Below the pieces are notes generated by a model that saw only the letters and a program-made list of their open reading frames with translations, searched no databases and was not told the origin of the DNA. 64,000 nucleotides of DNA from Acidobacteriota bacterium (GTDB taxonomy: Bacteria > Acidobacteriota > UBA890 > WLXD01). The DNA lies in assembly GCA_963666055.2 (NCBI GenBank), contig CAXWPH010000007.1, positions 224,001-288,000 of the forward strand. The letters are read 5' to 3'. Position numbers and translations under genes: made by a program. Positions 881 to 63,194 of this stretch are shown here, piece after piece; position 1 is the stretch's first letter, and each line of letters starts with the position of its first letter.

Positions 881-1501
881 TCACAGGTTGCGATACACGT
901 CGCGGGTGCTGCCGAAGTCGACCAGCGCCACCCAGTCACCGAACCAACTCTCGAGCTCGTCGTCGCCGGCGCCCATCGCCTGTTCCCATACGGCCAGGCT
1001 GTCCCAGGTCGACGACCAGACGAACTTTCCGGGGGCGTCAGTGCCGCAAAGCAGCTGCTGGTTCTGCCCCGACCAACCGTCGATGCCCTGGGCGCGGGCC
1101 ATCAGCTCGCGCGCCTGATCGAGTCGGTCAAGGCGCACGATGTAGGAGCTCCGCACTTCGATCTTGCGCGGCGTATTGTCGGCCGGCGGCGACGGATCGA
1201 GCACCGTAAACACCTCTTGAGCGCCGCCGAACAGGAGGCGTGGGGCGATCGTCGCGCGCCAAGCCCTGTATTCGTCGCATTGCTCCGCCACCGTCATCGC
1301 CTCTTCCCAAGCGGCAAGGCTCGGCCACTGGAACGACCATACGAACAGGCTCTGCTGCGCGTGGCCGTGAAGCATCTGCTGAATACGGCCTTCCCAGCCC
1401 AGGATCGGCCAGACGGTGTCGCGGCCGAGCTGCGCCAGCTCTTCGACGGGGCCCTCGGCGTCGAGCATGGTGACCCGATACGAACTGCGGACTTCGATCA
1501 T
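881..1501 (-). CDS. NIPSNAP-like dimeric alpha/beta-barrel protein with two tandem internal domains
   Basis: Two halves both start IEVRSSY and contain FVWS.xW.SLAxWExAM. Last gene of the ABC operon. Fold assignment is by pattern only. Confidence 0.6.
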   Translation of the reverse strand: MIEVRSSYRVTMLDAEGPVEELAQLGRDTVWPILGWEGRIQQMLHGHAQQSLFVWSFQWPSLAAWEEAMTVAEQCDEYRAWRATIAPRLLFGGAQEVFTVLDPSPPADNTPRKIEVRSSYIVRLDRLDQARELMARAQGIDGWSGQNQQLLCGTDAPGKFVWSSTWDSLAVWEQAMGAGDDELESWFGDWVALVDFGSTRDVYRNL

Positions 1502-1538
1502 TCAGCGCCTCTCGATGCGGCCGGTAACCGCTTCCGGC

Positions 1539-2543
1539 TCAGGTATGGAGATGACAGGCGACGGCGTGGCCCGGTGTCGGTTCGATCAGCTCGGGCTCGA
1601 GCGTGTCGCAGTCGACACCGCGCTCCAGCATGGCCTGGCTCTTGAACGTGCAGCGCGTGCAGAAGTTGCAGCCCGCCGGAGGGTCAGACGGGCTCGGCAC
1701 TTCGCCGCCGACGGCCACCGGACGCATCTGCCGGGCGCGCTCCGGATCCGGGATCGGAACAGCCGACAGCAGCGCCTGCGTGTAGGGATGACGAGGGCAG
1801 CCGAACAACTGGTCGCGTGGCGCACATTCGACCAGCTTGCCGAGATACATCACCGCCACGCGGTCGCTGATCTGCCGCACCACACCGAGATCATGGGTGA
1901 TCAGCAGATAGGAGAGCCCGAGCCGCCGCTGGAGGTCCTGCAGCAAGGCGACGATCTGCGCCTGGATCGACAGGTCGAGCGCCGATGTGGGCTCGTCGCA
2001 CACCAGCAGCTCGGGCTCGAGCGCCAGCGCTCGCGCGATGCCGACGCGCTGTCGCTCACCGCCGGCCAGCTCGCGCGGCAGGCGTGCACCGAGCGCAGAG
2101 TCGAGCCCGACGGTGTCGAGTAGCGAGTCGACCTTACGGCGCAGGGTGTCGCCCGCGAGCTGACGATGAATCTCCAACGGCTCGGCGATCAGGCGGCCGA
2201 TTCGCCATCGCGGATTGAGCGCCGCGCCGGCGTCCTGGAACACCAACTGCATGCGCGGTCGCAGCTTGGCTAGCTGCGCTCTGCCGAGCCCGGCGAGCTC
2301 CTGACCATCGAAGCGCACGCTCCCGGAGGTCGCCGGCACGAGTCGCAGAATAGCCCGCCCCAGCGTGCTCTTGCCGCAACCACTCTCGCCCACCAGGCTC
2401 AAAGTCTCGCCGCGAGCCACGGTCAACGAAACTCCGTCGACAGCCCGAACCACGCGGTGGTCGCGCCGCCAGCTGGTGCCCGCCCGACGTGGGAAGTACA
2501 CGCATAGCTCCGAGACTTCGAGCAGCGGCGCCGCGACGCTCAA
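1539..2543 (-). CDS. Peptide/nickel ABC transporter ATP-binding subunit (OppF/DppF type)
   Basis: Walker [17 protein letters not shown] signature, [13 protein letters not shown] and C-terminal GCNFCTRC oligo_HPY domain. Confidence 0.95.
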
Positions 2544-3487
2544 GTGCGCGGTTCCGAATGCCCGGTGCCAGGGTCGGCGCTCGCAAGGCCGAAGGTGGAT
2601 GAGCCCGCGGCGCCCAGGGCGTTCTGCCGCGCCAGCGTCATCAGCTGGCGGGTGTACGGATGCTCCGGGTTGGCATACAGGTCGGCGGCCGATGCGGTTT
2701 CGACGATTTTTCCAGCCCGCATGACCGCCACCCGGTCGGCGAGGCCGGCAATCACGCCCAGATCGTGGCTGATCCAGATCAGCGCCATGCCGAGATCGTC
2801 GCGCAGCCGCCGCATCAGATCGACGATCTGAGCCTGAACGGTCACGTCGAGCGCCGTCGTCGGCTCATCGGCGATCAGCAGCTCGGGCTCGGCGGCCAGC
2901 GCCATCGCGATCATCGCTCGCTGCCGCATGCCGCCCGACAACTGGTGTGGATACGCCTCAGCCAGCTCGTCGGGATGCGGAATTCCGACGCGCCCCAGCC
3001 ATTGCGCCGCCCGTTGACGAACCTGTGCGCGGCTTCCGCCCAGGTGACATTCGATGACCTCTCCGACCTGACGGCCCAACGTCATCACCGGATTGAGTGC
3101 CGACAGCGGTTCCTGGAAGACGAAGCCGATGCGCTTGCCGCGCACCCTCGAGAGCGCCGCGACGTCAAGCTCCAGGAGGTCGACGCCGCCCAGCGAGAGG
3201 CGCGCCGCCTCGATGCGCGCCGGCGGCGCCGGCACCAGACCGACCAGCGACATTGCCGTCACGCTCTTACCCGACCCGGACTCGCCGACGATGCCGAGGG
3301 TCTCTCCGGCCGCAACGTTGAAGGAAATCCCATCCACGGCGCAAACAACGCCGGCGCCGGTATCAAACTCGACGCGCAGATCGCGCACGTCGAGCAACGG
3401 TTGCGTATCGCCGGCGTGGCCTTGGGCGGTTATGGGCAGCTCACTAATCCTCGAAGCCCATCTCGCGGTTGAAGGAGCCGCCGCCAC
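2540..3487 (-). CDS. Peptide/nickel ABC transporter ATP-binding subunit (OppD/DppD type); true start probably near 3433-3448
   Basis: [29 protein letters not shown]. 4-bp overlap with the next gene. Confidence 0.93.
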
Positions 3488-4454
3488 TCATCTCCTTGCC
3501 GTCGAGGATGACCGTCGGGGTCGCCAGCATGATGTCCATGTGGTAATCGCTCAGGCCCACGGTGCCGCCGAAGTCGGGGTTCTGATATCCGAACCCGAAG
3601 TCGACCGCCGCTAGCTTGCGCTCGTCCTCGATCATGCGCCCCGAGATGCCGGCCTGTGGATTGAGCCCGAGGCTGAAGTGACAGAGCTTGTAGATGGTCG
3701 GATCGTTGCAGCTCGCCAGCCACTCGCGCATGGTGTCGGCCTCGGAGCCGCCTTCGACCTTGGTGATCACCCCGTTCTCCATCGTCATGCTGTAGGGGCT
3801 GTGCACCACACCCTGAACGCTATCGGAGGCGTCGACGACGATAACTCCCTCGATGCTCTCCTCCACCGGCGCGATGTTGGTCTGCATACCCGGAAAGAAG
3901 TCGTCCATCCCCGGTCGCTCGAGCTTGCCCGTACCGAGGTCGGCCTTGCGAGGCTTCAGCTGGAAGCTCACGTCGGTGCCCTGCGGCGTGGTGACCTGGC
4001 AGATGTCGGTGGCTTCCCATAGCTCGCAGACGCGCCTGCCGATGCGGATCATCTTGTCGATGTCGACGTGCAGCAGAGCCCGGACAACATAGTCCTCGAC
4101 GTTGGTGACCTCGGTGTAGAGGATGCTGGTGCCGCCGGCCTTGGCGTCGAGCATCGCCGGTGAGGCGTCGATCCCGTCATCGACGATCGATACGATGTAC
4201 TTCGCCGCCTTGAAGGCTTCGCAGAGAATCGGCCCCGGGGACGCCGCCTCCCCGGGCTTTGCAAGCTGCCTGATAATCAGCTGCGTATCGGCCCCGGAGC
4301 GCACCCCTGCCGCCATCAGGGCATGCGCCAGGTTCAGCTCGCTGCGCGTGTCGGCGAGCACCAGCAGCGGGTCGCCCGCAGCGGGCTCGACTAACCGCTT
4401 GATAGTGACCTCGGCGAACTCGTCCCAGAACTCTCTGGACTTCATCGATCTCAC
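3444..4454 (-). CDS. Peptidase M29 (aminopeptidase T) / NicX-fold metalloenzyme
   Basis: TPQGTDVSF, IAPVEESIEGVIVVD, HFSLGLNP, IEDER and YHMD motifs match the AmpT/NicX fold, but ligands differ from AmpT. Confidence 0.75.
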   Translation of the reverse strand: MRSMKSREFWDEFAEVTIKRLVEPAAGDPLLVLADTRSELNLAHALMAAGVRSGADTQLIIRQLAKPGEAASPGPILCEAFKAAKYIVSIVDDGIDASPAMLDAKAGGTSILYTEVTNVEDYVVRALLHVDIDKMIRIGRRVCELWEATDICQVTTPQGTDVSFQLKPRKADLGTGKLERPGMDDFFPGMQTNIAPVEESIEGVIVVDASDSVQGVVHSPYSMTMENGVITKVEGGSEADTMREWLASCNDPTIYKLCHFSLGLNPQAGISGRMIEDERKLAAVDFGFGYQNPDFGGTVGLSDYHMDIMLATPTVILDGKEMSGGGSFNREMGFED

Positions 4455-4491: not shown

Positions 4492-5235
4492 CTAGTCGTC
4501 GGGGCTCAGGCTGTCCGGCCGCGGGAAGGCGCGCTTGCTCTGCGCAATCCGCAGTCGCGCCAGGCTCTCCGCCATCATCGCCGAGGCCTGGATGGGGTCG
4601 ATTACCGGGATCGGCAGCTCGCGCTGCAGCCGGCCGATGACGTCGAGGCTGCCGTAGCCGATCACCGCGTCGGCGCCGTCTTCCTGCATCGCCAGCCGTC
4701 CCTGCTCGATCATTGCTTCGGGCAAGCTCGCGTCGCGGCCGGCGAACTCGAGCGAGTCGCCCGGCACCGCGCGCACCGAGGCCAGCTTGTCGGCGAAGCC
4801 GTAGAGGCGCGCCAGGTCTTCGATGCAGCGCGATCCGTAGGCGCCCCGCTGGTTGCCAGCGGTCTTGCCCGGCATCAAGAAAGAAAACCGCCTGCCGACC
4901 ATCGAGGCGAAGTGCATCGCCGCCTCCGACTCTCCGACCACCGGGATGTCGAGCGCCTCTTTGCCTCCTTGGACTCCCGGCTCATCCAGACAGCCCATGG
5001 CCACAGCATGGAAGCCTTCGCGCTCCGCCCGCCGAGCCGCGTCGATGTGCAGCATGGCCAGCGATTCGGCGTCGTAGACGCAGCCGATGGCCTCGATCGG
5101 TGCGTCCGGCAGATCCCACAGCTCGACTTCAACGCCGGCGTGCGCCAAGGGTGCCAGAAGCTCACGATGCACATCACCCCAGGCGCGCAGGCCGTTGCGA
5201 ACGGGGATGATGGCGCAGATACGAATGACCTCCAT
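4492..5235 (-). CDS. Asp/Glu/hydantoin racemase superfamily protein (allantoin-racemase-like)
   Basis: GCLDEPG, IPVVGESEAAMH, GADAVIG, IPVIDP motifs. ATG at 5235 overlaps the permease stop (TGATG). Confidence 0.85.
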   Translation of the reverse strand: MEVIRICAIIPVRNGLRAWGDVHRELLAPLAHAGVEVELWDLPDAPIEAIGCVYDAESLAMLHIDAARRAEREGFHAVAMGCLDEPGVQGGKEALDIPVVGESEAAMHFASMVGRRFSFLMPGKTAGNQRGAYGSRCIEDLARLYGFADKLASVRAVPGDSLEFAGRDASLPEAMIEQGRLAMQEDGADAVIGYGSLDVIGRLQRELPIPVIDPIQASAMMAESLARLRIAQSKRAFPRPDSLSPDD

Positions 5236-6089
5236 CAGGTCTCCTTTCCGTAGGCCGTTACGGCTCCGCCGACTCCGTCCTGGAGTCGGTCGCCGAGGCC
5301 CTCGCCGATCAAGTTGAATCCGACCACCAACACCAAGAGCGCCAAACCAGGAAAGCTCGCCACCCACCACTGGTCGAGTAGGAACTTCTGGCCCTCGGCC
5401 ACCATGCGTCCCCACTCCGCTGTGGGTGGTTGCGCTCCCAGCCCCAGAAAGCTCAGCGACGCCGCCGTCAACGCTACGAACCCAGCGTCGAGCGAGGCGC
5501 GCACGACGATCGGATCGATGACGTTGGGCAGCACGTGACGGGTGACGATACGGAACCGGCTGGCGCCGATGACGCGCGCCGACTCGACAAACTCTTGCTT
5601 GCGTACCGAGAGGATCTGGCTACGCACGAGCCGCGCGTAGGCGGGCCACCACAGAAACGCCACTGCGAGCATCGTCTGGCGCAGCCCGCGGCCGAGTACG
5701 GCGTTGGTGGCCAGCGCCAGGATCAGCGGTGGAAACGCCAGAAACACGTCAGTGGTTCGCATCAGCAATCCGTCGAGCCACCCGCCGACATAGCCGGACA
5801 CAGAGCCCACGCTCACACCTATGAGGATCGCGATGACAAGCACCACCACCACGGTCGCCAGCGTCGTACGCGCCCCGTAGACGACGCGCGTGTACACGTC
5901 GATGCCGACCCCGTCGGTGCCCAGCCAGTGCTCCGCTGACGGAGCAGCCAGCCGCCGCTCGAGCTCCAACCCAGCCGGATCCTGGGCGGTGAAAAGGCCC
6001 GGAGCCAGCGCCATCGTCAGGAACAGCGCGACGATAGCGCCGCCGACAATCATGCGCCGGTCTCGCGGCACCCTCGGACGGTTACTCAT
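5235..6089 (-). CDS. Peptide ABC transporter permease (DppC/OppC type)
   Basis: HWLGTD, EAA loop (EFVESARVIGAS), LSFLGLG.QPP.AEWG. Confidence 0.95.
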   Translation of the reverse strand: MSNRPRVPRDRRMIVGGAIVALFLTMALAPGLFTAQDPAGLELERRLAAPSAEHWLGTDGVGIDVYTRVVYGARTTLATVVVVLVIAILIGVSVGSVSGYVGGWLDGLLMRTTDVFLAFPPLILALATNAVLGRGLRQTMLAVAFLWWPAYARLVRSQILSVRKQEFVESARVIGASRFRIVTRHVLPNVIDPIVVRASLDAGFVALTAASLSFLGLGAQPPTAEWGRMVAEGQKFLLDQWWVASFPGLALLVLVVGFNLIGEGLGDRLQDGVGGAVTAYGKET

Positions 6090-7089
6090 ATTCGATCCGC
6101 GGGTCGAGCCGAGCGTACAGCAGATCGACCCCGAGATTTACGAACAGGTAGGCGATGGTCGAAATGAGCGTGACCCCCATGATCACCGGGATGTCGAGCC
6201 GGAAGATCCCGGTCCAGGCATACGTACCCAAGCCACCCCAGGAGAACAGGTTCTCGATCAGCACCGTGCCGCCGAGCAGGAAGGCGACCTGTAGGCCGAT
6301 CACCGTGGTGGTGAGCAACAGCGCGTTCGGCAGCGCGTGGTGCAACCACACACTGCGCTCCGGCAGCCCCTTGGCCCGCGCCGTGCGCACGTAGTCTTGG
6401 CTCAGCGCCAGGAGCATGGAGCTGCGAGTGATCCGACCCACTTCCGAGACACCGGCAATCGCCAGCGTCGTCGCCGGCAGCACCAGGTGACGGACCGCGT
6501 CCACAAACGTGCTCCACTGTCCGGCCAGAATCGCGTCGACGGTGTACATCCCAGTGAGTCCGGGCGGCGGTAGCGTCTCGAGCCCGAGACGGCCGGCGAT
6601 TGGAAGCACTCGCAGCCAACCGGCGAAGACGAGCTGCAGCAACAAGGCAAGAAAGAACACCGGCATCCCGACGCCGAAGTAGGAGAAGCCGAGGAAGCCG
6701 TGATCGAACCAGCCGCCTCGTCGGGTCGCCGCGCGCACGCCGAACGGAATCCCGACGCCGACGGTGATCACCATCGTCGCCAGCAACAGCTCGAGCGTCG
6801 CCGGAAAGAAGATCAGCAGCTCGCGAGCAACGTCCTGCTTCGAGGTGAGCGACGTACCGAGATCGCCGCGCGACAAGCGCCCCATGTACAACGCGTACTG
6901 CACCGGCAACGGCCGATCCAGGCCGAGACGCTGGCGAACCGCCTCGAGCTGATCGGGTGTGGCAAGCCGACCCGCCGCCGCTCGCGCCGGATCGCCCGGC
7001 AGCATGTTGCTGAGGAAAAAGGCCAGCAGGCTGACGCCGATGAGCACCGGGACCATCAGCAGCAGGCGTCGGACGACGTACCGTCTCAT
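6082..7089 (-). CDS. Peptide ABC transporter permease (DppB/OppB type)
   Basis: PGDPA, GLDRPLPVQY, DYVRTARAKGL, C-terminal LDPRI. ATGA overlap with the binding-protein stop. Confidence 0.95.
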   Translation of the reverse strand: MRRYVVRRLLLMVPVLIGVSLLAFFLSNMLPGDPARAAAGRLATPDQLEAVRQRLGLDRPLPVQYALYMGRLSRGDLGTSLTSKQDVARELLIFFPATLELLLATMVITVGVGIPFGVRAATRRGGWFDHGFLGFSYFGVGMPVFFLALLLQLVFAGWLRVLPIAGRLGLETLPPPGLTGMYTVDAILAGQWSTFVDAVRHLVLPATTLAIAGVSEVGRITRSSMLLALSQDYVRTARAKGLPERSVWLHHALPNALLLTTTVIGLQVAFLLGGTVLIENLFSWGGLGTYAWTGIFRLDIPVIMGVTLISTIAYLFVNLGVDLLYARLDPRIEYE

Positions 7090-8651
7090 TGCTCCCGCCA
7101 CATCGGGTAAAGGTTCTGGGTCAGCGGATGCCCGAGACTAACCGCATAGCCATGCAGGTCGTCACGCTGGGCCGACAGTCCGACCATGGTGACGCTGACG
7201 GCAAAGGGCATGTCCTCCAGCCACAGCGCCTCGACCTGCCGATAGAGAGCACATCGAATCTCCGCGTCGAGCTCCTCGGCAGCGGCTTCGAGCAGGGCGT
7301 CCATCTCGGGATCCTGATACCAGGCAAAGTTGTTGCCACCGTTGCCCGCCTGCCCTGAATGGGCCAGCGAGTAGAGAAAATGATGTGCCTCCGGGCCGGG
7401 GGCGAACAGCCATATCGTGCCGATGTCTGTGGAAGTCTCCAGCCGCGAGTAGTTCTCCACCTTGGCATCCCACTCAATGTCTACAGCGGTCACACGTATG
7501 CCGAGCTGCGCCGCGCCGGCGCGCATGATCTCGAAGATCGGCGTCTCACCGGTGGTGCCCTCGAACGCCATCGTGAGCTCGACCTGATCCGTATCGATCC
7601 CGGCCTCGGCGATCAGACGCCGCGCCTCGTCGAGGTCGGTGCGGGGGCGCGGTGAGTCGAGGCTGGCGCACTCGGCGCGAGCCGGCAGCACCCCGCGCGG
7701 CCACTCGGCGTTACCGCGCATGAGGTGCTCGAGATGCCCCTCGTAGTCGTAGCTGAGCGCCAGAGCCCGGCGTACGCGCGCATCGGCCAGATGCCGACTC
7801 TGGGAGTTGAACGCGATGTAGAGCTGATTGAGCGTCGGATCGCGGTTCACTACGATGCCGGGCTCGCCGACGAGGGCCTCGAGGGTGTCGGCACTCGATA
7901 GGTAGATCCAGTCGGCGTCGCCGTTGACCAGCGCGATACGCCGCGCCGCCTCCTCGCGAATGACGCGGAACACCGCGCTGTCGATGTGCCGCTCGCCCCA
8001 ACCACCGTGGTACGCGGGAAAGCGCTCGACGGTGAACTGCTGCTGCGGCTGGAAGGAGACCAGTCGATACGGCCCCGCGCCCGCATCGTGCGTCTGCAGC
8101 CAGCGCTGGCCGAGGTCGCCCTCGAACTCATTGGCACGAATGAGGTCGGCGTTGGCAATGTACAGACGGGTCATGGCGCCCAGGAACCCGGGGAAGGGCG
8201 CATACAGGTCGACGGCAACGTGCCATGGGTCGAGCACCTCGGCGCCGCTCACCGGTGTCAGATAGGCCCAGACACCGATCTTCAAGGTCAGCATGCGGTC
8301 GATGGTGTACTTCACGTCCTCAGCCAGAACCGGCGTGCCGTCGTGGAAGCGAGCCGCGTCGCGCAGCGTGAACACGTACCTACGACCATCGTCGGTTACC
8401 TTGAACGACTCCGCCAGATCGGGGCGCAACTCCGTGCTGCCGGGCTCGTACTGAACCAGCGCGCTGTACAGGTTGATGATCGGGTTGTCGACGCGACTAT
8501 CGAGCGCCGCCACCGGATCGAGCGTCGGCGGAATCCCCTCGGTGAGCAGCACCAGGTGCAATCGGTCGACGGCCGGCGCGCACCCCAGCGACGCGGCGAC
8601 AAGCGCCGCCGCAATCATCGAGGCGTGGCGACGTGGTGACGCTGTCAACAC
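7086..8651 (-). CDS. ABC transporter substrate-binding lipoprotein, family 5 (start uncertain, 8618-8651)
   Basis: Lipobox ASLGC, TLDP, PDLAES, FHDGTPV.AEDVKYT, GAGPY, VRRAL. Confidence 0.92.
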   Translation of the reverse strand: MLTASPRRHASMIAAALVAASLGCAPAVDRLHLVLLTEGIPPTLDPVAALDSRVDNPIINLYSALVQYEPGSTELRPDLAESFKVTDDGRRYVFTLRDAARFHDGTPVLAEDVKYTIDRMLTLKIGVWAYLTPVSGAEVLDPWHVAVDLYAPFPGFLGAMTRLYIANADLIRANEFEGDLGQRWLQTHDAGAGPYRLVSFQPQQQFTVERFPAYHGGWGERHIDSAVFRVIREEAARRIALVNGDADWIYLSSADTLEALVGEPGIVVNRDPTLNQLYIAFNSQSRHLADARVRRALALSYDYEGHLEHLMRGNAEWPRGVLPARAECASLDSPRPRTDLDEARRLIAEAGIDTDQVELTMAFEGTTGETPIFEIMRAGAAQLGIRVTAVDIEWDAKVENYSRLETSTDIGTIWLFAPGPEAHHFLYSLAHSGQAGNGGNNFAWYQDPEMDALLEAAAEELDAEIRCALYRQVEALWLEDMPFAVSVTMVGLSAQRDDLHGYAVSLGHPLTQNLYPMWREQ

Positions 8652-8783
8652 GCGGTGCCGATAGCGGCGGCTCGGGTAGAAGATGCGAACAAGCGCCTCC
8701 CGCGGGTGAGACCTCGAGTCGTGTCGGCTCGAGCCCACGTCCCATGGACGCCCGGTTCTCCGGAACACGAGTGTAGGTCGTAA

Positions 8784-8794
8784 TATTGTATCCA
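8784..8794. promoter_or_regulatory. Putative GntR operator, copy 1 (TATTGTATCCA)
   Basis: AT-rich motif in the divergent region between the SBP and M24 genes; recurs in five other promoter regions. Confidence 0.65.
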
Positions 8795-10192: not shown

Positions 10193-11055
10193 TGGACCTC
10201 CGCGTGAAGCGCCCGGGAGCCTTCTTGCTGACGCTGGCGCTGACCGCATGTGGCGGTGCACCGCAGTCGCAGGAATCGTCGAGCGCCGCCGACGGACCGC
10301 TCGACACAGAGCGAGGGACCGACGCTGAATCCGTCATCGGGCCACCCGATGGCATGCACCCCTTCTACCGCAAGTACCTCGACGCCGAAGGGGTGGCGAT
10401 CGTCAGCTCCGCAGCGGTTCCCGACGCGGCGCTGGTCGCGGCTCGACGGAACATCCTGCACCTGCTGAGCAGTCGGCCCGATGTGCACCAGGCGATGCTG
10501 CACCAGGTGCCGCGCATCTCGATCATGGCGATCTCGGAGACCGCCTCCGATTTGCCCGAGTTCGGCGCCAGCGCCGACGGCGAGTGGGGCCTCGGGCAGA
10601 TGCCCGGCGACCCGACCAGCCTCGTTTCAGAGCGCGGCATCTGCTATCCGGGCAACACCGAGTATCGTGCGAACTTCCTGCTGCACGAGTTCGTTCATGT
10701 AATGCAGAACCTGGGCTGGGCGACCACCGATCCGGGGGTCGAAGACGAGATCTTCGCGGCCTACCGGGCGGCGGTGGCGCGGGGGGAATTCGACGCCCCG
10801 GTCGGCGAGCCCGCGAACGTCACCCCGGCCGAGGCCTTCGGCGACGACGAGTACCTGACCCACAACGTCAACGCTTGGTTCGATCTCAACGAGTCGCTGC
10901 CGGGGCCCTGGGTCGACGTGCAGATCGGCGATAACGGGCCGCCTTCGGGCACTCGCGAGGAGCTTCGCCAGCGCGACCCGACGCTGTACGCGCTCATCGA
11001 GCGGTTCGTGCCCGACTCGCTGGGCGATCTGATGGACGGCTGTGCTGGGCGCTAG
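10192..11055 (+). CDS. HEXXH zinc metallopeptidase lipoprotein (lethal-factor/Pro-Pro-endopeptidase-like zincin)
   Basis: Real start is the ATG overlapping the M24 stop (TGATG). Lipobox LTAC; FYRKY, LLHEFVH, DEY..xVxAWFD, TREEL..RDP.LY. Confidence 0.75.
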   Translation: MDLRVKRPGAFLLTLALTACGGAPQSQESSSAADGPLDTERGTDAESVIGPPDGMHPFYRKYLDAEGVAIVSSAAVPDAALVAARRNILHLLSSRPDVHQAMLHQVPRISIMAISETASDLPEFGASADGEWGLGQMPGDPTSLVSERGICYPGNTEYRANFLLHEFVHVMQNLGWATTDPGVEDEIFAAYRAAVARGEFDAPVGEPANVTPAEAFGDDEYLTHNVNAWFDLNESLPGPWVDVQIGDNGPPSGTREELRQRDPTLYALIERFVPDSLGDLMDGCAGR

Positions 11056-44080: not shown

Positions 44081-44088
44081 GGGCTCTA

Positions 44089-46802: not shown

Positions 46803-46805
46803 GCC

Positions 46806-55846: not shown

Positions 55847-58193
55847 CGATTTGCTGACGTAGCTGCTGGCCTCGACGGGCCCATTCCTGCGCCCGCGCCG
55901 GCTCGCCTGTTCGGTTGTACAGATCGGCGAGCAGAAAGTAGCCGAGGGTCATGTCGGGGGGTTCGAGCTGCTCCGCGATCGCCCCCTCGACCATCTCGAT
56001 GGCGCGCTGCAGGTCGCCGCCGCGCCGCAGCATCAGGCGTGCCATGAAGAGGTTGCCCTGCGCAAAGTCGGTATCGAGCTCGAGCACGCGCTGCAACTGC
56101 CGGTGCTCGTCGTCCTCACGCCCCATCTTTCGGTAGACCATCGCCAGGTTGAAGTGGGCGGCGACGTCCTCGGGAACGGTTTCGAGCTCCTGCAGGTACT
56201 CGCGCACCGCTGCCGCCGGCTCGCCGCGCTGGTCGTGAATCTCGGCCAGCACCGCGTGCACCCCGATCAGCCGATCGTTGAGCTCGAGCGCGGCACGCGC
56301 GTAGCTTTCGGCGTCGTCGAAACGGTCCAGATGGAAGTACACCTGCGCCAGGCCCCCGCGCGACGACGACCCGTCGGGGTTGAGCTCCAGGCATCGCTGG
56401 AACGCGGCTATCGCGTCGTCGAGCTCGCCCTGGCGCCTGAGAACGTCGCCAAGAAGAAAGTACAGCTGGGCGTTGTCGCCCACCAGCTCCAGGCCGTCCC
56501 GAACGGTCTTCTCGGCCTCTTCGAGGCGCCGCAGGCCGACCAGGGCATCGGAGGCGAAGATGTAAGCGTACGGGTCGTCGGGCTTGAGCGGGATGGAAGC
56601 GCTGTAAGCCTCGACCGCCTCCTCCAGGCGTCCCTGCTGGAAGTACAGCTCGCCCAGCGTGTGGTGCGCATCGACAATGCCCGGGTCTTCTTCCAGCACC
56701 TCGCGCAGCAGGCGCTCGGCCTCGGCAAACTCGTCGCGGTTCATCGCTTGCCTTGCTTCAAGCGACTTGTTGTAGATCTCGATCTTGGTGCGCGGACTGG
56801 GCAGATCCGAGCCATCGTCGTCGATCGCCTGGAAGGTCCCGACGTAGCCGAGGCTGACGAGCTTGCGTCGCGTCTCCTCGTCGAGGTCAACGGCGGTCGA
56901 CGAGCTGGCGCCTTCGCTCCACGTGGCGATCTGTTCCTCCGCCGAGCGCGTCATCTCGAAGACCACCGTGTTCAGCGTACCGGCCAGGTTGTGCTCCTCG
57001 GCCGGGTCTTCGATCAGATCGTAGAGCTCCGGGTCCGACGACAGGATGAGCTTGTAGCGCTCGTCGCGCAGCGCCCGCAGATCACTCCAACCGTAGTGCA
57101 ACCGTGCGTACCAGCTCTCGGAGTAGATATATCGCTCCTCGGGCTCGGTCCCTGACTCGAACAACGGTGCGAGGCTGCGACCTTGGAATTCGAGGCCGGG
57201 CTCCAACCCGATGATCTCGAGCACCGTCGGCATGACGTCGACAATCGACACCAGCTCGGAGCGTCGCTGACCACCGTAGTTGCCGAAGGGGACGCGCATG
57301 ATGAGCGGCACGTGCGTTGCCTCGTCGTAGACGAAGAAACCGTGTTGCGCCTCGCCGTGTTCCCCGAGGCTCTCGCCGTGGTCGGCGACGATCACCAACA
57401 GCGTGCTGTCGAGCAGCTCACGCTGGCGCAGCTCCTGCACCAACCGTCCGACCTGGGAGTCAGTGTAGGCGATCTCGCCCAGGTAGGGGCGGCCCGGGTA
57501 CTGCGACTTGTAGGGCTCCGGCGGATCGTAGGGGGCGTGCGGATCGTACATGTGCAACCACATGAAGAAGGGCTGTTCGGGGGCCTGCTGAGAGGCCCGC
57601 TGGGAGGATTCCGGCGCCGGCTGATCGAGCCAATCGATCGCCTGGTCGACCACCTCGCTCGCCGGCCGCTGCACGCTGCCCATGGCGATCACCCGCTGGC
57701 CACGTACGTCGAAGTCGTCGACGTAGTGGTCGAACCCTTGATCGATGCGCCAGCGCCGATCGAGGACGTAGGCCGCGACGAAGCCCCCGGTGCGGTATCC
57801 GGCCGCTCCCAAGACCTCCGCCAGGGTCTCGGCCTCCTCGGGGACGAGATAGCCGCCGTTGTCGATGACGCCATGCAGCAGCGGGTAGTTGCCGGTGAAC
57901 AGCGACGTGTGCGCCGGCAGCGTCAGCGGCGTGGTCGAGTGGGCGTTCTCGAACAGCACCCCGTGGCGCGCCAGGCCATCGATCGCCGGCGTCGAGATAT
58001 CGCTGAAGCCGTAGGCGCCGAGGCGATCGGCGCGCAGCGTGTCCAGCGTCACCACCACCACGTTGTAGGGGCCTTCGCCACGTGCATCGGCGACGCTGCC
58101 CGACGGTGACCCGCCGCTGCATCCGACGGCGCACCAGGCGAGCAGCGTGACCGCAAACCGAGCCCGGGTTGTGCCGCTGCGCCGTAACGCCAT
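55836..58193 (-). CDS. Sulfatase-like (alkaline phosphatase superfamily) lipoprotein with C-terminal TPRs
   Basis: Lipobox AVGC, DTLRAD, TLPAH (no C/S-x-P-x-R), HMYDPH.PY, ADHGE.LGEH, ELYDL..DP.E, L.SLGY, then TPRs. Confidence 0.9.
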   Translation of the reverse strand: MALRRSGTTRARFAVTLLAWCAVGCSGGSPSGSVADARGEGPYNVVVVTLDTLRADRLGAYGFSDISTPAIDGLARHGVLFENAHSTTPLTLPAHTSLFTGNYPLLHGVIDNGGYLVPEEAETLAEVLGAAGYRTGGFVAAYVLDRRWRIDQGFDHYVDDFDVRGQRVIAMGSVQRPASEVVDQAIDWLDQPAPESSQRASQQAPEQPFFMWLHMYDPHAPYDPPEPYKSQYPGRPYLGEIAYTDSQVGRLVQELRQRELLDSTLLVIVADHGESLGEHGEAQHGFFVYDEATHVPLIMRVPFGNYGGQRRSELVSIVDVMPTVLEIIGLEPGLEFQGRSLAPLFESGTEPEERYIYSESWYARLHYGWSDLRALRDERYKLILSSDPELYDLIEDPAEEHNLAGTLNTVVFEMTRSAEEQIATWSEGASSSTAVDLDEETRRKLVSLGYVGTFQAIDDDGSDLPSPRTKIEIYNKSLEARQAMNRDEFAEAERLLREVLEEDPGIVDAHHTLGELYFQQGRLEEAVEAYSASIPLKPDDPYAYIFASDALVGLRRLEEAEKTVRDGLELVGDNAQLYFLLGDVLRRQGELDDAIAAFQRCLELNPDGSSSRGGLAQVYFHLDRFDDAESYARAALELNDRLIGVHAVLAEIHDQRGEPAAAVREYLQELETVPEDVAAHFNLAMVYRKMGREDDEHRQLQRVLELDTDFAQGNLFMARLMLRRGGDLQRAIEMVEGAIAEQLEPPDMTLGYFLLADLYNRTGEPARAQEWARRGQQLRQQIDGG

Positions 58194-58275
58194 CGCTGGT
58201 CGCCTGCAACAGGGAACGGTGAGTCCGGTGGTCAGGGATCGGGTGTCACCAGCGAGGCGTACCGGGGCCCTGCCC

Positions 58276-58313
58276 AAAACAAGTACGGGGGAACGGATCG
58301 CTCCGTCCCCCCG
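58276..58313 (-). terminator. Probable intrinsic terminator after the TonB receptor
   Basis: GC hairpin GGGGGAACGGA-tcgc-TCCGTCCCCC followed on the minus strand by TACTTGTTTT. Confidence 0.6.
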
Positions 58314-58341: not shown

Positions 58342-61176
58342 CTAGAAGTTCAAGACGAATCCAAGCCGGATGTTGCGCGGGAAGCGGAGGTTTCGGGTCG
58401 CCGCGAAGGCATCTGACGGGTTGTCGTTGAAGGGGTCGTCCTCGGTTTGGACCCTCGTTATGGTACCGGAGTTGAAGACGTTGAACACGTCCGCCATGAC
58501 GCGCAGCTGCGCCCGCCCGATCGGGTACCGCCCCTCGACTCGGAGATCGAGGTTGACCTGCGTCGGAGTGCGCCGGGAGCCGCGTGGCTCGACGAAGACG
58601 CCGCGGTTACGCCCGGTAAAGTCGACATCGCGGAAGCGGAGACTGCGCTGATAGGGCATACCGGACTGGATCCAGAAGAACCCGCCGACCGCGATATGGC
58701 TGCCGATCCGCGCGCTTCCGGTCGCCTTGATGTTGTGCGGCCGGTCGCCTTCTAAGGGGCCGTCCGCGTTGAAGTGGTTGTTGGGGTTTCTCCAGTTACG
58801 CGAGGGTCCGAGCGACGATCCGCGGTTGTTCTCGAACGCGGTGTCGTCGGTGCCCTTGGTGCGGCCGTAGAAGTACGACAGGTTGGCGCTCCAGCCGTCG
58901 GCGAACCGCTTCTCGAAGCTCAGGCCCACGCCGTCGTACCTGCGCGACTGGGTGAAGCCGTTGAAGTCGAACGGCGACAGGATCGGCAGCCGCTCCGGGT
59001 TCGTGTTCAGAAACTCCGATTCGTCTACGTTCGTCTGATCCCACAGCTGGTAGCTCTCCCCGGTACCCGACGGGGTTTGGTTATCGACTCCGGTGAGGTT
59101 TCGGAATATGCCGTTGCCCAGGCGGTAGTCCATGAAGTCCTTGGTGCGTCGGTTGATGTAGGTGAGCTCGACGCCGATCCTTCGGCTCAGCTGGCGCTCG
59201 ATGCCGACGCTGAACTCGTTGAAGTAGCTCATCCGCAGGTTCGGGTCGATCGGCGTGAGGGGCGACTGGAACTCGGTGAACTCGAGCTCGTACTCGTCGC
59301 CGTTCCAGAAGAAGCCCTGGAATATCGACTCTCCCGGCGCCAAGTACATGCTGGTGATGATCTGCGAATAGTACTTACCGAAGTGTCCCTTCAGGGCCGT
59401 CGTACCGTCGCCCAAAAGGTCATAGGTAAGGCCTATACGTGGTGCGAACCCGGTCTTCGGCTTGAAGGGGGTACCGAAATCATCCGTAACCGCCGGAATG
59501 CCGGTGGCGGCACCCCTATCCGTCACTGCCGAGCCCTGCCAGGAAGTAATGCGTACGCCAGGGTTGATCGTCAGGCGATCGCCGCCGAGCGTCCAGGCAT
59601 CCTGCGCGAAGAACGCGATCGTCCGGTTCTTGGGCTGGTCGTTCTGGGACGGCAGCTCGTACTTGTAGAGCGGCTCGCCGGCATAGTCGATGTAGAACGC
59701 CCCGCCGGTATACCCGGTATGGGTGCGCGTCGGATCGCTCGACGACTGGAACCCCGCCTTGAAGTCGTGCGAGCCACCGAGGAACTCGTCGGCGTAGTGA
59801 CTGATCGAGGCGTTCAGCTGGTAGCGGTTCCGGGTGCGATCGAAGAAGAAGCCCGGGCTCCCGGTCAACAGGCCAGTGGCCTCGTCGACGCGACCAGGAG
59901 GCAGAGGATTGCTCAGGTCGGTATCCGGGTTGATGTCCGTCGCGCCCGGATAGTCTGAGCTGGCGTTGGCGGCCAGGCCGGCGTGAATCTCGAGCACCGT
60001 GTCGGGGTTGAAAATGCGCAGGTAGTCGACGAAGTAGGTGTCCCACTTCCCCCACGGCGCGAATACGGCCTCTGGCGCGACAAACAGGTCGGCCGGGTCC
60101 ATTCCGCTCTCGCGCTCATACGCGATGCTCCCCTGCAGCCTGTCCTTTTCCGAAATTTGCCAGGAGAGCTTACCGAACATTGCCCAACGACTGGCGAACC
60201 CCTCGGTGCCGCCCGAGACCTCGGTCGCAAAGTTCGACTTGGAGCGACGATACGAGCCGTAGCCCCAGAGCGTGTTGGCCGCCAGCGGACCACCGATGTC
60301 GATGTGTTGCTGGTTGTTGTTGTTGATGGTCTGGATGAACTGCGGGTCGTCGGAGTTCTGCGAGTTCCAGCCGTTGGCGCGCACGAAGTAATTCGCCGTG
60401 CCCTGCAGCCGCGGTCCACCGGACTTGGTCACCAGGTTCATCACCATGCCGCTGTAGCCACCGACCTCTGCCGGGGCACCGACGCCGCCGAACGAAGCCT
60501 CGGCGACGTTGTCGACATCCATCTGCATCTCGACCTCGCCGCCCTCGGCGGAGTTCACCAGCACGCCGTCGTAGGAGAACTGGGTCCCCTGATTCGTACC
60601 GCCTAGCGCCGACGCGCCCCGACCTGAGGCACCGCCGGAGCTGCGCGTTCTACCGAGGTTGGCACCCGGTGCCATGCCGAGAAAGTCCGACGCACCGCTG
60701 TTGCTGCGGTTGGCCGGCAGCGCATCGAGGTATTCGTTGCTGAACGTGGTGGTGTTGGAGGACGACCCCCTGACATCGACCAACGGCGCCTCACCGGTGA
60801 CCGTGACGGTCTCCGTCACACCGCCGATCTCCATGGTGAAGTTGACCGCCAAGGTGGCACCCATGCTCACCCGGACGTCGTTCTGCTGCATCGGCCCGAA
60901 GCCTTCCAGCGTCGCGTCGACCGTGTAGAGCCCAGGTGGCAGTGCTGGCGCTCTGTAGCGTCCGTCGATTCCGGTGACCATGACGCTCGGCACCATCAGC
61001 ACCGGGCCGGAAACGGCTACCGTCACACCTGGCAATGGTGCGCCGTCAGGATCCGTAATGGTCCCGTTCAGCGTGCCGGAGCGGCCGGTGGCGCCCTGCG
61101 CCATGACGTTCGTCGGTGTGGTCAGCAACAGGACAAGGGCTGCGGTAATGGAAATCAGCCAAACAGCGCGTCGCAT
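58342..61176 (-). CDS. Oar-like TonB-dependent receptor with N-terminal carboxypeptidase-regulatory domain
   Basis: G.ITD.DGA.LPGVTV, ETVTV.GEAPLVD, VTKSG, QDAW, APRIG.TYD..GDG.T, DVFNVFN, C-terminal Phe. GAGGAGAG RBS. Confidence 0.93.
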   Translation of the reverse strand: MRRAVWLISITAALVLLLTTPTNVMAQGATGRSGTLNGTITDPDGAPLPGVTVAVSGPVLMVPSVMVTGIDGRYRAPALPPGLYTVDATLEGFGPMQQNDVRVSMGATLAVNFTMEIGGVTETVTVTGEAPLVDVRGSSSNTTTFSNEYLDALPANRSNSGASDFLGMAPGANLGRTRSSGGASGRGASALGGTNQGTQFSYDGVLVNSAEGGEVEMQMDVDNVAEASFGGVGAPAEVGGYSGMVMNLVTKSGGPRLQGTANYFVRANGWNSQNSDDPQFIQTINNNNQQHIDIGGPLAANTLWGYGSYRRSKSNFATEVSGGTEGFASRWAMFGKLSWQISEKDRLQGSIAYERESGMDPADLFVAPEAVFAPWGKWDTYFVDYLRIFNPDTVLEIHAGLAANASSDYPGATDINPDTDLSNPLPPGRVDEATGLLTGSPGFFFDRTRNRYQLNASISHYADEFLGGSHDFKAGFQSSSDPTRTHTGYTGGAFYIDYAGEPLYKYELPSQNDQPKNRTIAFFAQDAWTLGGDRLTINPGVRITSWQGSAVTDRGAATGIPAVTDDFGTPFKPKTGFAPRIGLTYDLLGDGTTALKGHFGKYYSQIITSMYLAPGESIFQGFFWNGDEYELEFTEFQSPLTPIDPNLRMSYFNEFSVGIERQLSRRIGVELTYINRRTKDFMDYRLGNGIFRNLTGVDNQTPSGTGESYQLWDQTNVDESEFLNTNPERLPILSPFDFNGFTQSRRYDGVGLSFEKRFADGWSANLSYFYGRTKGTDDTAFENNRGSSLGPSRNWRNPNNHFNADGPLEGDRPHNIKATGSARIGSHIAVGGFFWIQSGMPYQRSLRFRDVDFTGRNRGVFVEPRGSRRTPTQVNLDLRVEGRYPIGRAQLRVMADVFNVFNSGTITRVQTEDDPFNDNPSDAFAATRNLRFPRNIRLGFVLNF

Positions 61177-61223: not shown

Positions 61224-62000
61224 TCACGGGGTTCCGTCTCGGGCGTGCCGGTCGCCCGGATTCTCGGAGTCCTTTGCCGACGCGGCGGTCGGCTCGGGCT
61301 CCATCGGCAGGTTATCGCCGGCCGGACGCATTCTAGCGTAGGGCCAGCTGTTGGTCTGATAGTCGTGATAGGTCTTCGAACGGTTCTCCTTCAGCACCTC
61401 TATGGCACGCTCAATGCTGCCGGCTTCGATAGCGTCGAGTATCTGGTCGTGCTGCTCGATCGACTCGGTCCACTCGCTGATATGCGAGAACGCCCAGATC
61501 TCCAGGCTCTTCACCTTGGAGCGGAGCTCGTCGAGCATACGCAGCAAGCGATCATTGCTCGAGCCGGCCGACAGGAGGTGGTGAAACTCGTGGTTTACAG
61601 CGATGCCAGCCTTGATGTCCTGTTCGGCGAACGCGGCGCGATAGCTCCGGTTCACTTCCCGAAGCTCCTCCAGAGCGTCGGCGTCGAGCCGCGGGAACGA
61701 CTCCTCTGCGGCCAGCACCTCGAGCGCGCACATGATCGGGTAGAACTCGGCGAGGTCGGCGGCAGATTCCTCGGGCACCCGAAAGCCACGATGGGGAATG
61801 CGCTCGAGAAACCCTTCGGACGCAAGACGACCCAGCGCTTCTCGCACCGGCGTGCGGCTGACCTGCAGTCGCGCGCTCACGTCTTGTTCCCGAATGAATT
61901 CACCAGGCTTCAGGCTCGCGGCCAACACGCGATCTCGGAGGATCTGATAGACCTGATCGGTCAGCGTAGCGGTACGCAGGAGCGGCCAAGTCTCACTCAA
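61224..62000 (-). CDS. GntR-family transcriptional regulator (FCD subfamily); start uncertain (TTG 62000 or upstream)
   Basis: QVYQ.LR..VL, L.VSRTPVREAL..L..EG, N.EFH, S..QH..I..AI. Confidence 0.93.
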   Translation of the reverse strand: MSETWPLLRTATLTDQVYQILRDRVLAASLKPGEFIREQDVSARLQVSRTPVREALGRLASEGFLERIPHRGFRVPEESAADLAEFYPIMCALEVLAAEESFPRLDADALEELREVNRSYRAAFAEQDIKAGIAVNHEFHHLLSAGSSNDRLLRMLDELRSKVKSLEIWAFSHISEWTESIEQHDQILDAIEAGSIERAIEVLKENRSKTYHDYQTNSWPYARMRPAGDNLPMEPEPTAASAKDSENPGDRHARDGTP

Positions 62001-62010
62001 TAACTGCCCA

Positions 62011-62041
62011 TAGTGTATGGAATATTGTATGCAGTATTCGA
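62011..62041. promoter_or_regulatory. Putative GntR operator, copy 6 (autoregulatory array TAGTGTATGGA-A-TATTGTATGCA-GTATTCGA)
   Basis: Tandem copies of the motif directly upstream of the GntR gene. Confidence 0.7.
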
Positions 62042-62264
62042 TTGGCCGTAAAGCTAACGAATCCATACATCTCATGTAAAGGGCTGTGGCCCGAAATCTT
62101 GACGATATTCCGACGATTGCTGACGATGCGCGCGTGCAGCTAGCGCCGCATGTAGAGGAGTGTGGCCCCTTCCGTCGTCACAGCCTGTTGCATACTGACT
62201 ACGGTGACACTGGTGGACTGGAACGGTCCGGCGAACCTAAAGCATGGCGGGGATCAATCTTCGA

Positions 62265-63194
62265 ATGGCGGTCAGAATCGGCGTCGTCGGCTGGGGAGAG
62301 ATCGCGCGCCGACACGCCGATCAGCTGCAACGCGCCGGGGCGCGCTTGGCGGGGGTTGTGGCGCGGCGGCGTCCCGTAGATCTAGAGGTGCCGTGGTTCG
62401 AATCGATCGAGCAGCTGCTGCCACACGTCGACGGCGTAACCATCGCGGTGCCCAACCACCTTCACGCCAGCAACTGTCTTGCCGCCGTACGGGCCGGGCG
62501 AGCCGTCATGGTCGAGAAGCCCTTGTTGATATCCGCCGCCGAGCTCGGCGACCTCGAACGGGTGCTGCCGCATGTCGACGTGCCCGTTCACGTCGGCTTT
62601 CGCCTGCGCTGGAACTCACTGCTCGGGGACCTGCGCGACACCCTACGGAACGCCCGACGGATCGAGTGCTCGTACACACTCGGAATCAACGAGCTCGCCG
62701 CCGGCAAGGACTGGACCCGACGCCAAGACCGCACCGGCGGCGCGTTCTTCACGCTGGGCGTCCACGTGCTCGATCTGGCCCGCTGGCTGAGTCGTGCCAA
62801 CGGTGAGCCGATGGCCGATCTGCGCGCCCGCGCCGACGGGTTGGGCGAAGGGGCCGACTACCCGCTCCGTGCCACCATCAGCGGGCACATTCACGGCATA
62901 CAGCTGCAAGCAACAACCGACACCCGCGGCGACCAGCCGTATCGACTCGACGTGCGCGCCTGGCACCACGACGGCTCAGCACCGCACCACATCTCGCTCG
63001 ACGAAGCCCACGAAGTGATCGAATACGGCGCCTTGCTGCGCGATTTCGTGGAAGCAACGGCGACGGGCCGTGTCGATCAACAGGCGGTAACCGAATACCT
63101 GCAGACGCATCGCGAGCTGCTGCACGCCCGCGAGCTGGCCGCGAACCCCGATTCTGCTGTCGCCCCGGGGAACGGCGGAGACCCGGCGTCGTAA
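62265..63194 (+). CDS. Gfo/Idh/MocA-family oxidoreductase
   Basis: IGVVG.G.IA..H, PN.LH, EKP, GF.LR, GG.F..LGVH.LD. Confidence 0.88.
   Translation: MAVRIGVVGWGEIARRHADQLQRAGARLAGVVARRRPVDLEVPWFESIEQLLPHVDGVTIAVPNHLHASNCLAAVRAGRAVMVEKPLLISAAELGDLERVLPHVDVPVHVGFRLRWNSLLGDLRDTLRNARRIECSYTLGINELAAGKDWTRRQDRTGGAFFTLGVHVLDLARWLSRANGEPMADLRARADGLGEGADYPLRATISGHIHGIQLQATTDTRGDQPYRLDVRAWHHDGSAPHHISLDEAHEVIEYGALLRDFVEATATGRVDQQAVTEYLQTHRELLHARELAANPDSAVAPGNGGDPAS

Follow-up and report, generated by a model that had tools for sequence, protein, structure and literature searches.

A conserved, operator-marked catabolic island of Acidobacteriota with parallels to hydroxyproline regulons and collagen utilisation clusters

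Comparison with described systems

Polysaccharide utilisation loci (PULs) of Bacteroidota unite a TonB receptor, surface and periplasmic hydrolases, inner-membrane carriers and one regulator in a single region. Closer precedents for the locus treated here are the HypR regulons of Alteromonadales and Shewanella, in which an autoregulated GntR-family regulator is found with a hydroxyproline epimerase, proline peptidases, a TonB receptor and carriers (Leyn et al. 2016, PMC5343134; see also PMC3223726 for Alteromonadales and PMC6608401 for Streptomyces coelicolor), and the collagen utilisation gene cluster of Colwellia BB5, covering 21 kb around an M9 collagenase and peptidyl-prolyl isomerases (PPIases) (Borchert et al. 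2021, PMC7883544); these and the other articles given by PMC number are cited for the sections drawn upon. The present locus lies in a window of 64,000 nucleotides (C7:224001-288000) of an Acidobacteriota genome, G000 (5.73 Mb in 15 contigs, 95.7% complete). The window is the dense half of a catabolic island of about 135 kb with one conserved motif in its promoter gaps. With a probability of roughly 0.5, the island is read as a GntR-repressed system which would import and dismantle proline- and hydroxyproline (Hyp)-rich peptides, such as fragments of collagen or of plant-wall proteins.

Like the HypR regulons, the island combines a GntR-family regulator, here predicted to be autoregulated, with a putative epimerase, peptidase-fold enzymes, TonB receptors and TRAP, MFS and ABC carriers, the proline-peptidase and the TonB, TRAP and MFS members being present by fold or family only. 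Unlike them, it leaves hypE/O/D/H outside motif control in G000, it is clustered over some 135 kb, and its peptidases belong to uncharacterised secreted subfamilies. The island GntR was rejected as a HypR orthologue, matching S. meliloti HypR at 30-33% and 74 bits, versus 61% and 256 bits for a Rhizobium homologue. With the Colwellia cluster the island shares clustered secreted peptidases, a TonB receptor, MFS carriers, candidate proline peptidases, a putative Hyp epimerase and a regulator, whereas it is several times larger, rich in exopeptidases and furnished with zincin lipoproteins and sulfatase/ASPIC/TPR modules, no M9 or PPIase having been found. The original prediction had proposed a peptide/amide analogue of a PUL. 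As regards layout this description stands, with peptidase-fold hydrolases and a cytoplasmic GntR as regulator, while the label is a loose one because closer precedents exist in the two systems above and no SusD was found; in fact, no window protein matched the SusD family, and the first TonB-dependent receptor fell far below the SusC cut-off. Co-regulation of the clustered uptake and hydrolase genes is suggested by their shared, conserved motif.

A further acidobacterial cluster was noticed on a Granulicella tundricola plasmid (locus L171), whose annotation shows GH127 arabinofuranosidases, hyp catabolic genes, M1 peptidases, a PPIase, aminopeptidase P and TGTATAC-like motifs, and which is a candidate extensin utilisation locus. 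Its TGTATAC-like motifs resemble those of the island, and it couples hyp genes with M1 and aminopeptidase P; unlike the island, it uses GH127, a Cys/Cys HypE, a heteromeric oxidase and different peptidase families. Full-text literature searches, which were thin on subscription journals and excluded supplements, returned no description of the present locus, and a comparative Acidobacteriota study gives peptidases, in the sections cited, only as totals (PMC11245096).

The promoter-gap motif, its conservation and gene density

The consensus ATAYYGTATNCR has 11 matches in G000, eight of them in the island (C7:155-287k), and ATATTGTAT occurs four times in 5.7 Mb, always inside the window. Six operator sites occupy all five divergent gaps of the window and the gap before the M28 operon, and in leave-one-out comparisons each held-out site was equalled or beaten in 0-5 of 676 other divergent gaps. 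The single operator originally proposed for these operons is therefore present in all five divergent promoter gaps, and it is kept in relatives. Three further sites (C7:155905, 183641 and 201658) lie upstream of the window and precede paralogous modules, with TRAP, a second short-chain dehydrogenase/reductase (SDR), aldo-keto reductase (AKR), M29-like, MFS, SSS, M24, M28 and DUF885 genes and four more zincin-like proteins (EExxH or similar). Therefore, the island is placed at about C7:152-289 kb, reaching some 70 kb upstream of the window, and is larger than first reported. Outlying sites were found at C3:44290, C11:45715 and C14:205922 (in coding DNA), while two other peptidase-rich regions, C6:355-392k and C15:545-582k, showed no site above 13 bits.

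The regulator gene has an operator site upstream of its own start, so that autoregulation is predicted, and the shared motif is predicted to be the operator of this resident repressor. The motif contains TATTGT/TATACT hexamers, and the overlap of its sites with -10-like hexamers fits the expectation for a repressor. Only three FCD regulators are encoded in G000; two of them flank the locus, and the second lacks the start that bears the DNA-binding helix-turn-helix (HTH). Just past the window (C7:288860-289369), downstream of a long poly-G run, a second GntR copy (56%) without N-terminal HTH is either a pseudogene or an assembly error; G004 offers the mirror case, its first copy being truncated and its second intact.

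Relatives (G001-G019 and others) include the congeners G001 and G002 and a sister family, f2 (G012, G013, G015, G016 and G017). The class-level search covered 15 genomes of two families at >=85% completeness, and phylum-level counts refer to 401 genomes. Genes were called with a custom hexamer model, and families were assigned by Pfam and NCBIfam profile searches, PDB searches and Foldseek. GntR orthologues were found in 9 of the 401 genomes, all in the class of G000. In 10 genomes, which belong to two families, a near-palindromic form of the motif lies upstream of the GntR orthologue, weakly so in G005, G012 and G017. The consensus ATAYYGTATNCR was matched 10 times in G002 (8 in orthologous regions), 6 times in G007 (3 in the cluster), 4 times in G012 (2 in a cluster) and once, outside, in G005; five genomes in which a GntR orthologue was not found, or not within the cluster, gave 0, 1, 4, 2 and 0 scattered matches. 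Taken as sequence evidence, these data make it quite probable that the regulon is real.

Synteny, counted within the fetched stretches of each relative, gave matches at >=55% identity for 46 of the 48 tested genes in G002, 28 in G001, 16 in G012, 10 each in G005 and G015, 9 in G007 and 5-6 in G003/G004. Gene order is retained in G001 and G002; in other genera, the second family and Thermoanaerobaculia the modules are kept but reshuffled, and G003, G004 and G007 hold deletion remnants in which the epimerase survives. The co-localisation in Acidobacteriota for which the original prediction called was thus found. The conserved core consists of an AKR, a Ser/Cys enzyme of the proline-racemase family and an SDR lacking its catalytic Tyr, which remain grouped in two families as well as in named loci of Thermoanaerobaculia. 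G012, G015 and G016 carry AKR-epimerase-SDR-DUF885-TRAP-Gfo-DHDPS-OCD-ALDH-TonB receptor-M29-MFS (OCD, ornithine cyclodeaminase family; ALDH, aldehyde dehydrogenase) beside ASPIC/TPR/sulfatase genes, most of the block recurring on short contigs of G013 and G017. Moreover, 12 of 80 named epimerase loci (Thermoanaerobaculia, Ca. Multivorans and others) show M28-AKR-epimerase-SDR-TRAP, 10 of them with a TonB receptor within the stretch; the nearest named loci are from Acidobacteriota and Thermoanaerobaculia, and an M24e homologue at 91% identity carries the label Acidobacteriota. Three genomes of a distant genus, g130, hold 50-70 kb with amidohydrolases, zincin-like genes, M24 and DUF885, and are not counted as independent since they may overlap with the named loci.

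As regards gene density, 9 of the 82 M24, M14 and M28/M20 genes of the genome lie in the window versus 0.92 expected, the best non-overlapping 64-kb window elsewhere holding 5 (permutation p=0.0004; p=0.01 and 0.08 once tandem or close paralogues are merged). G000 has 28 Pfam M24 matches, lifted to 38 by profile searches, 13 M14 genes and 31 M28/M20 matches, with about 22 members of the secreted M24 group. M24 matches number 17-28 in the five genomes of the genus versus 2-14 in the 15 genomes of other families of the phylum, and M14 behaves alike. A similar peptidase density across the genome had been named beforehand as an argument against a locus: the families are indeed expanded order-wide, but the window is still the densest spot, and lineage-wide expansion and local clustering are both true.

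Gene content of the window

The features, by position within the window, are the following.

881..1501, minus strand: 206-aa protein with two similar halves, last gene of the ABC operon (no family match; 87% orthologue in G002)
1539..3487, minus: two ABC ATPases, oligopeptide/dipeptide (Opp/Dpp) type (Pfam/NCBIfam)
3444..4445, minus: M29/NicX-fold protein without signal (family search, NicX alignment)
4492..5235, minus: Asp/Glu/hydantoin racemase family (family search)
5235..8618, minus: ABC permeases and family-5 solute-binding protein, start approximate (family search, gene model)
8783..8794, plus: operator site 1, gap between ABC operon and M24a (motif; kept in G001, G002 and G004)
8843..10192, plus: M24a, secreted, uncharacterised subfamily, ligands D,D,H,E,E all present (alignment, model)
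10192..11055, plus: HEXXH zincin lipoprotein, its family weakly ATLF/PPEP/M90-like (profile searches)
11042..13015, plus: TonB-dependent receptor 1, top NCBIfam match BtuB-type, below cut-off
13190..14473, minus: MFS transporter, galactonate-transporter-like (below cut-off)
14479..15450, minus: probable lipoprotein, weakly similar to GH43/GH32 propellers (below cut-off)
15519..16937, minus: M24b, lipobox, variant subfamily, Gln at the aligned fifth-ligand position
16947..22401, minus: three tandem secreted M14 carboxypeptidase-fold genes
22464..22475, plus: operator site 2, gap between M14 operon and MFS2 (motif)
22493..23773, plus: MFS transporter 2 (family search)
23778..24465, minus: Phd/YefM antitoxin and PIN toxin pair (family search)
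24664..26028, minus: M24c, ligands intact, without signal peptide
26054..28858, minus: TRAP transporter dctPMQ (family search)
28855..34255, minus: DUF7133 propeller, multi-haem cytochrome c and ThuA-like module (co-located in G007, G012 and G188)
34597..34615, plus: operator site 3 (tandem), gap between ThuA operon and ureohydrolase (motif)
34692..35645, plus: ureohydrolase, agmatinase-like (family search)
35685..37070, minus: M24d, secreted, ligands intact
37193..38206, minus: secreted TPR protein
38188..39624, minus: M24e, secreted, variant subfamily, 55% identical to M24b (model pLDDT 94)
39621..40400, minus: atypical SDR (alignment)
40403..41464, minus: proline-racemase-superfamily enzyme, Ser/Cys dyad, hydroxyproline 2-epimerase type (alignment)
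41532..42572, minus: AKR (family search)
42572..44080, minus: M28 peptidase, without signal peptide in G000
44086..44362, strand not given: copy of a miniature inverted-repeat transposable element (MITE), about 277 bp, between operator site 4 and the M28 start
44459..44470, plus: operator site 4, upstream of the M28-AKR-epimerase-SDR-M24e operon (motif; kept in G002 and G007)
44553..47864, minus: GWxTD-TPR protein and TPR/carboxypeptidase-regulatory-domain protein
47949..47960, plus: operator site 5, TPR/ASPIC gap (motif)
47983..52633, plus: FG-GAP/ASPIC protein and BNR/Vps10 propeller protein
52644..58277, minus: TPR protein, second FG-GAP/ASPIC protein and sulfatase-TPR protein
58342..61176, minus: TonB-dependent receptor 2, carboxypeptidase-regulatory domain and barrel
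61224..62000, minus: GntR/FCD regulator, predicted island repressor
62022..62037, plus: operator site 6, near-palindromic and some 20 bp upstream of the start of GntR (motif)
62244..64000, plus: Gfo/Idh/MocA oxidoreductase and TPR protein, continuing past the window end

All eleven metallohydrolase-fold genes of the original prediction (five M24, three M14, one M28, one HEXXH and one M29/NicX-like) were recovered with Pfam and NCBIfam, together with its ABC, TRAP, two MFS and two TonB transporters, the hydantoin-racemase- and proline-racemase-family enzymes, ureohydrolase, SDR, AKR, Gfo and GntR. The export signals claimed for most of the hydrolases were found in 8 of the 11 by a hydrophobicity/lipobox heuristic, not SignalP, the exceptions being the M29-like protein, M24c and M28. 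As peptidases the set is less uniform: the folds are as described, while the M29-like protein and two of the M24 proteins may be something other than peptidases.

The five metal ligands D, D, H, E and E align in M24a, M24c and M24d, whereas M24b and M24e form a subfamily of their own, in which the residue aligned with the fifth ligand is Gln, near-invariant in 120 homologues. Models of M24a (pLDDT 90, Foldseek E 2e-18) and M24e (Foldseek E 4e-14) show the two-domain creatinase-N and pita-bread fold of M24B Xaa-Pro peptidases, which are also their top matches at 11-20% identity; for M24a the best are Xaa-Pro amino/dipeptidases (16-20% to solved enzymes), and a single-sequence PDB search with M24a gave no match. 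As part of the 0.5 reading, the M24 enzymes may cleave before proline. M24c is predicted to be cytoplasmic, since it has no leader in G000, G001 or G002. The M14 proteins are 35-44% identical to each other, without further paralogue in G000 at E<1e-8, and all three keep the HxxE...H zinc ligands, the NR motif and the catalytic Glu at positions which we take to be those of the family, with carboxypeptidase T as best PDB match.

The M29-like protein scored 20 bits against the Pfam M29 cut-off of 27, and its sole PDB match was NicX (7cn3, E 3e-12), whose His and His-x-Asp, presumably metal ligands, are kept. Therefore, it is likely a mononuclear-metal enzyme and not an aminopeptidase; an M29 aminopeptidase with a dinuclear Glu/His site was rejected on the same grounds. 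A paralogous M29-like/hydantoin racemase/ABC binding protein/M24 module (52-65% identical), without permeases or strong site, stands at C6:367669-372552. In the zincin family, HEXXH and a downstream Glu are near-invariant; of 54 members, 14 have a match to Pfam ATLF and 7 to M90, whereas the protein of the window has neither, and all 11 PDB matches of the family profile at E<1 are PPEP-1/ATLF-fold chains (best E 0.07). PPEPs cut Pro-Pro bonds (PMC12828418). Secreted zincin-like proteins with EExxH or EHxxH replacing HExxH were also observed (L121:12035-12871, L122:1601-2518, L122:6439-7662, C7:159382-160512 and C7:203979-206774); their domain has no Pfam family, one is fused to DUF885, and in distant genomes two of them are conserved along with the core.

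The MITE before M28 belongs to an inverted-repeat element with 90 copies of >=200 bp in the genome, and a hydrophobic, ATG-started stretch lies on its far side from the M28 start; judging from the sequence, the insertion may have cut off the M28 signal peptide, and it could affect the downstream epimerase operon. A short MITE end-remnant lies near 44520-44560.

Several observations concern the surroundings. The Phd/YefM-PIN pair between MFS2 and M24c is a passenger, present as a fragment in G002 and absent at this spot in G001. At 34306-34533, upstream of ThuA, there is a C-terminal fragment of a symporter-like gene, where G002 has about 17 kb of other DNA. The TPR genes flanking the locus (window 1-861 and 63194-64000) are paralogous to each other (74% over 140 nt), which hints that the receptor/TPR module was duplicated long ago, and C7:218940-223136 (L130:943-5136) encodes a 1,398-aa TonB receptor-GWxTD-TPR fusion, the matching region of G002 having no single frame of that length. 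A search for direct repeats in the window gave paralogue and FG-GAP repeats only. Horizontal acquisition is unsupported by GC content (65.7% vs 64.4%), and a host-associated (sponge) habitat was considered and not established, a literature search on Multivorans giving one taxonomic mention only. Three metatranscriptome contig sets gave only short pieces, mostly <95%, and are not used as evidence.

Substrate, rival explanations and meaning

The original prediction had listed several recalcitrant substrates, of which Pro/Hyp-rich peptides are the best supported, by the Ser/Cys dyad and by hyp-pathway neighbours in relatives, although the substrate is here a matter of inference; the co-regulated import-and-hydrolyse locus rests on synteny and operator conservation. 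The window epimerase has a Ser/Cys dyad with Ser-x-x-Asn, matching the 4-hydroxyproline epimerase type, with best PDB matches about 40% identical, and 81 Ser/Cys dyads were counted among the 80 named loci. Ser/Cys members of cluster 9 act as 4-Hyp epimerases, with promiscuity towards 3-Hyp (Zhao et al. 2014, PMC4113996), the type being listed as unknown by Watanabe et al. (PMC3958920). The island shares with cluster 9 the dyad, Ser-x-x-Asn and, in relatives, DHDPS/ALDH neighbours, while its partners are a Tyr-less SDR and an AKR instead of a D-amino-acid oxidase. As part of the 0.5 reading, the enzyme would likely epimerise hydroxyproline.

In the sister family (G012, G013, G015, G016 and G017) the core adjoins a DHDPS-family gene, a pyrroline-2-carboxylate (Pyr2C)-reductase-family gene and an aldehyde dehydrogenase of the alpha-ketoglutarate semialdehyde (KGSA) type; the OCD gene next to the G012 core passes the NCBIfam Pyr2C reductase cut-off, and the ALDH shares 37-38% identity with S. 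meliloti HypH. For the DHDPS, identity is only 27-28% with S. meliloti HypD, but 38-44% with acidobacterial hyp-operon genes and 56-57% with a Rhizobium gene adjoining a GntR that is 61% identical to S. meliloti HypR. PDB searches with DHDPS and for the TRAP ligand gave no identification, and no operator site was seen in the gaps of the hypD/hypH-like genes of the f2 clusters. In G007 the GntR adjoins a Cys/Cys HypE orthologue. In G015 and G016 (86-88% complete) there is a single racemase-family gene, and nothing matches the G000 D-amino-acid oxidase, which leaves room for SDR, AKR or Gfo at the oxidation step, incompleteness being another explanation.

The window SDR, found in 20 of the 401 genomes, was rejected as a classical SDR since both catalytic residues are replaced: Ser by Ala and Tyr by Phe in every one of the 30 homologue rows with >=55% identity, with Lys kept and an invariant Cys two residues after the Ser position; five rows below 40%, and the most distant genome, G066, keep Tyr. 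A Cys at the corresponding position is implicated in imine-reducing SDRs (Stockinger et al., PMC7540600), a parallel which is a lead only, because those SDRs keep Tyr. An Atlas search with the SDR gave no specific name.

According to the proposed mechanism, ATLF/PPEP-like zincin lipoproteins would cleave Pro-rich polypeptides at the surface, TonB receptors would bring the fragments in, and periplasmic exopeptidases (M24 of Xaa-Pro fold, M14 and M28) would trim them, while sulfatase, GH43-like and BNR proteins might strip decorations. ABC, TRAP, MFS and SSS carriers would then import dipeptides and imino acids, cytoplasmic M24c would release Pro/Hyp, and the Ser/Cys enzyme would epimerise hydroxyproline; HypD/HypH/Pyr2C-reductase-like enzymes, in the island in the sister family and elsewhere in G000, would complete catabolism, the Tyr-less SDR and the AKR performing redox steps on pyrroline intermediates. 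An imino-acid intermediate might induce the regulon. In general, the scavenging of peptides or amides is strongly favoured, and the odds of a Pro/Hyp focus are about even.

A number of results weigh against this reading. The core hypE, hypO, hypD and hypH are not under the motif, their G000 candidates (with D-amino-acid oxidase, ALDH and Pyr2C-reductase, on C3, C6 and C15; hyp candidates on C3 and C6) having no clear upstream sites, and the C3 site sits after hypE-DAO (D-amino-acid oxidase) and before an unrelated gene. The island GntR is, besides its 30-33% to S. meliloti HypR, 26-33% identical to acidobacterial hyp-operon GntRs. The epimerase is below all NCBIfam cut-offs, at 40% to Ser/Thr dehydratase versus 34% to HypE; the M24 structural matches are of low identity, with creatinase, EutD and DddP close behind; the PPEP link of the zincin family is weak (E~0.07); and M9 collagenase was matched in 0 of 5 genomes, in a search whose positive control was also blank everywhere. 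The NicX-like, hydantoin-racemase, ureohydrolase, cytochrome/ThuA and sulfatase/ASPIC/TPR modules have no evident Hyp role, sulfatase-TPR and ASPIC genes being multi-copy in G000. Moreover, G005 keeps GntR and island, yet has no ATAYYGTATNCR match inside; the GntR module of G002 is on another contig, not adjacent to the BNR gene; g130 keeps genes without GntR or sites; 67 of the 80 named epimerase loci lack the atypical SDR; and in G006, G009 and G019 no island genes accompany the epimerase, G011 keeping only ThuA beside it.

As a rival explanation, the regulon would be real but would serve broader or different small modified amides (N-acyl, hydroxylated or D-amino-acid peptides, cyclic amides, N-heterocycles or natural-product peptides), with hydroxyproline as a minor input. 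Such a role is possible, if tentative: the operon of the ABC carrier also contains the NicX-type and hydantoin-racemase genes, further members of the extended island are a ureohydrolase, a hydroxyaspartate-dehydratase-like PALP enzyme, amidohydrolases and PQQ dehydrogenases, two M24s with altered metal site match creatinase/DddP about as well as prolidases, and GntR is not HypR. Nevertheless, the core gene that is conserved best encodes a Ser/Cys enzyme of the proline-racemase family, with hyp-pathway-like neighbours in the sister family. Glycopeptides might also be the target, the peptidases only releasing them, with Hyp-linked or sulfated glycans of plant, algal or animal glycoproteins as main substrate and DHDPS/ALDH/Gfo as a sugar-acid (Weimberg-type) route. 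DHDPS and KGSA dehydrogenase also serve pentose-acid catabolism, which is in line with that route, as are the GH43/GH32-like lipoprotein beside a galactonate-type MFS, the sulfatase, BNR, ThuA and TRAP genes, and the Granulicella locus, where GH127 is joined with hyp genes and peptidases. It is nonetheless unlikely, given that no glycoside hydrolase exceeds its cut-off in the window, that peptidase-fold genes outnumber candidate carbohydrate-active enzymes and that a Pyr2C-reductase-family gene is in the core.

The absence of any functional unit, with a lineage-wide peptidase expansion piled up in a plastic region and a motif that is mostly a shared -10 promoter element, seems very improbable. 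The 22 or so secreted M24 members, the fall of the enrichment to p=0.08 on collapsing paralogues, the shuffled gene order, the decay of the island in G003, G004 and G007 and the TATTGT/TATACT hexamers would agree with it; on the other side, no site in the peptidase-rich regions of C6 and C15 exceeds 13 bits, the 676 other divergent gaps hardly contain the motif, and the gene kit stays together in distant lineages. Beyond the import and dismantling of Pro/Hyp-rich peptides as set out above, a bolder version is doubtful: a collagenase-independent degradation of collagen/extensin type, where PPEP-like surface zincins (EExxH variants upstream) would open Pro-rich chains, secreted prolidase-fold and M14 subfamilies of complementary Pro/Hyp specificities would finish them, the Tyr-less, Cys-assisted SDR would be a new NAD(P)-dependent pyrroline/D-hydroxyproline oxidoreductase replacing the flavin oxidase, and the GntR would be a new regulator.

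Acidobacteriota are abundant and mostly uncultured, and the numerous peptidases they possess have no assigned substrates. Three enzyme groups for which no close solved or characterised member was found here come out of this work: the secreted M24 group (>3,000 sequences), the variant M24 subfamily and the Tyr-less SDR. In sponge symbiont genomes no collagenases were found, according to the sections cited (Robbins et al., PMC8163846); if the kit does degrade Hyp-rich protein without M9, collagenase surveys such as this one would miss such systems. Furthermore, a regulon-defined island shared across lineages provides a bounded set of enzymes and a predicted inducer, and suggests substrates for cultivation.

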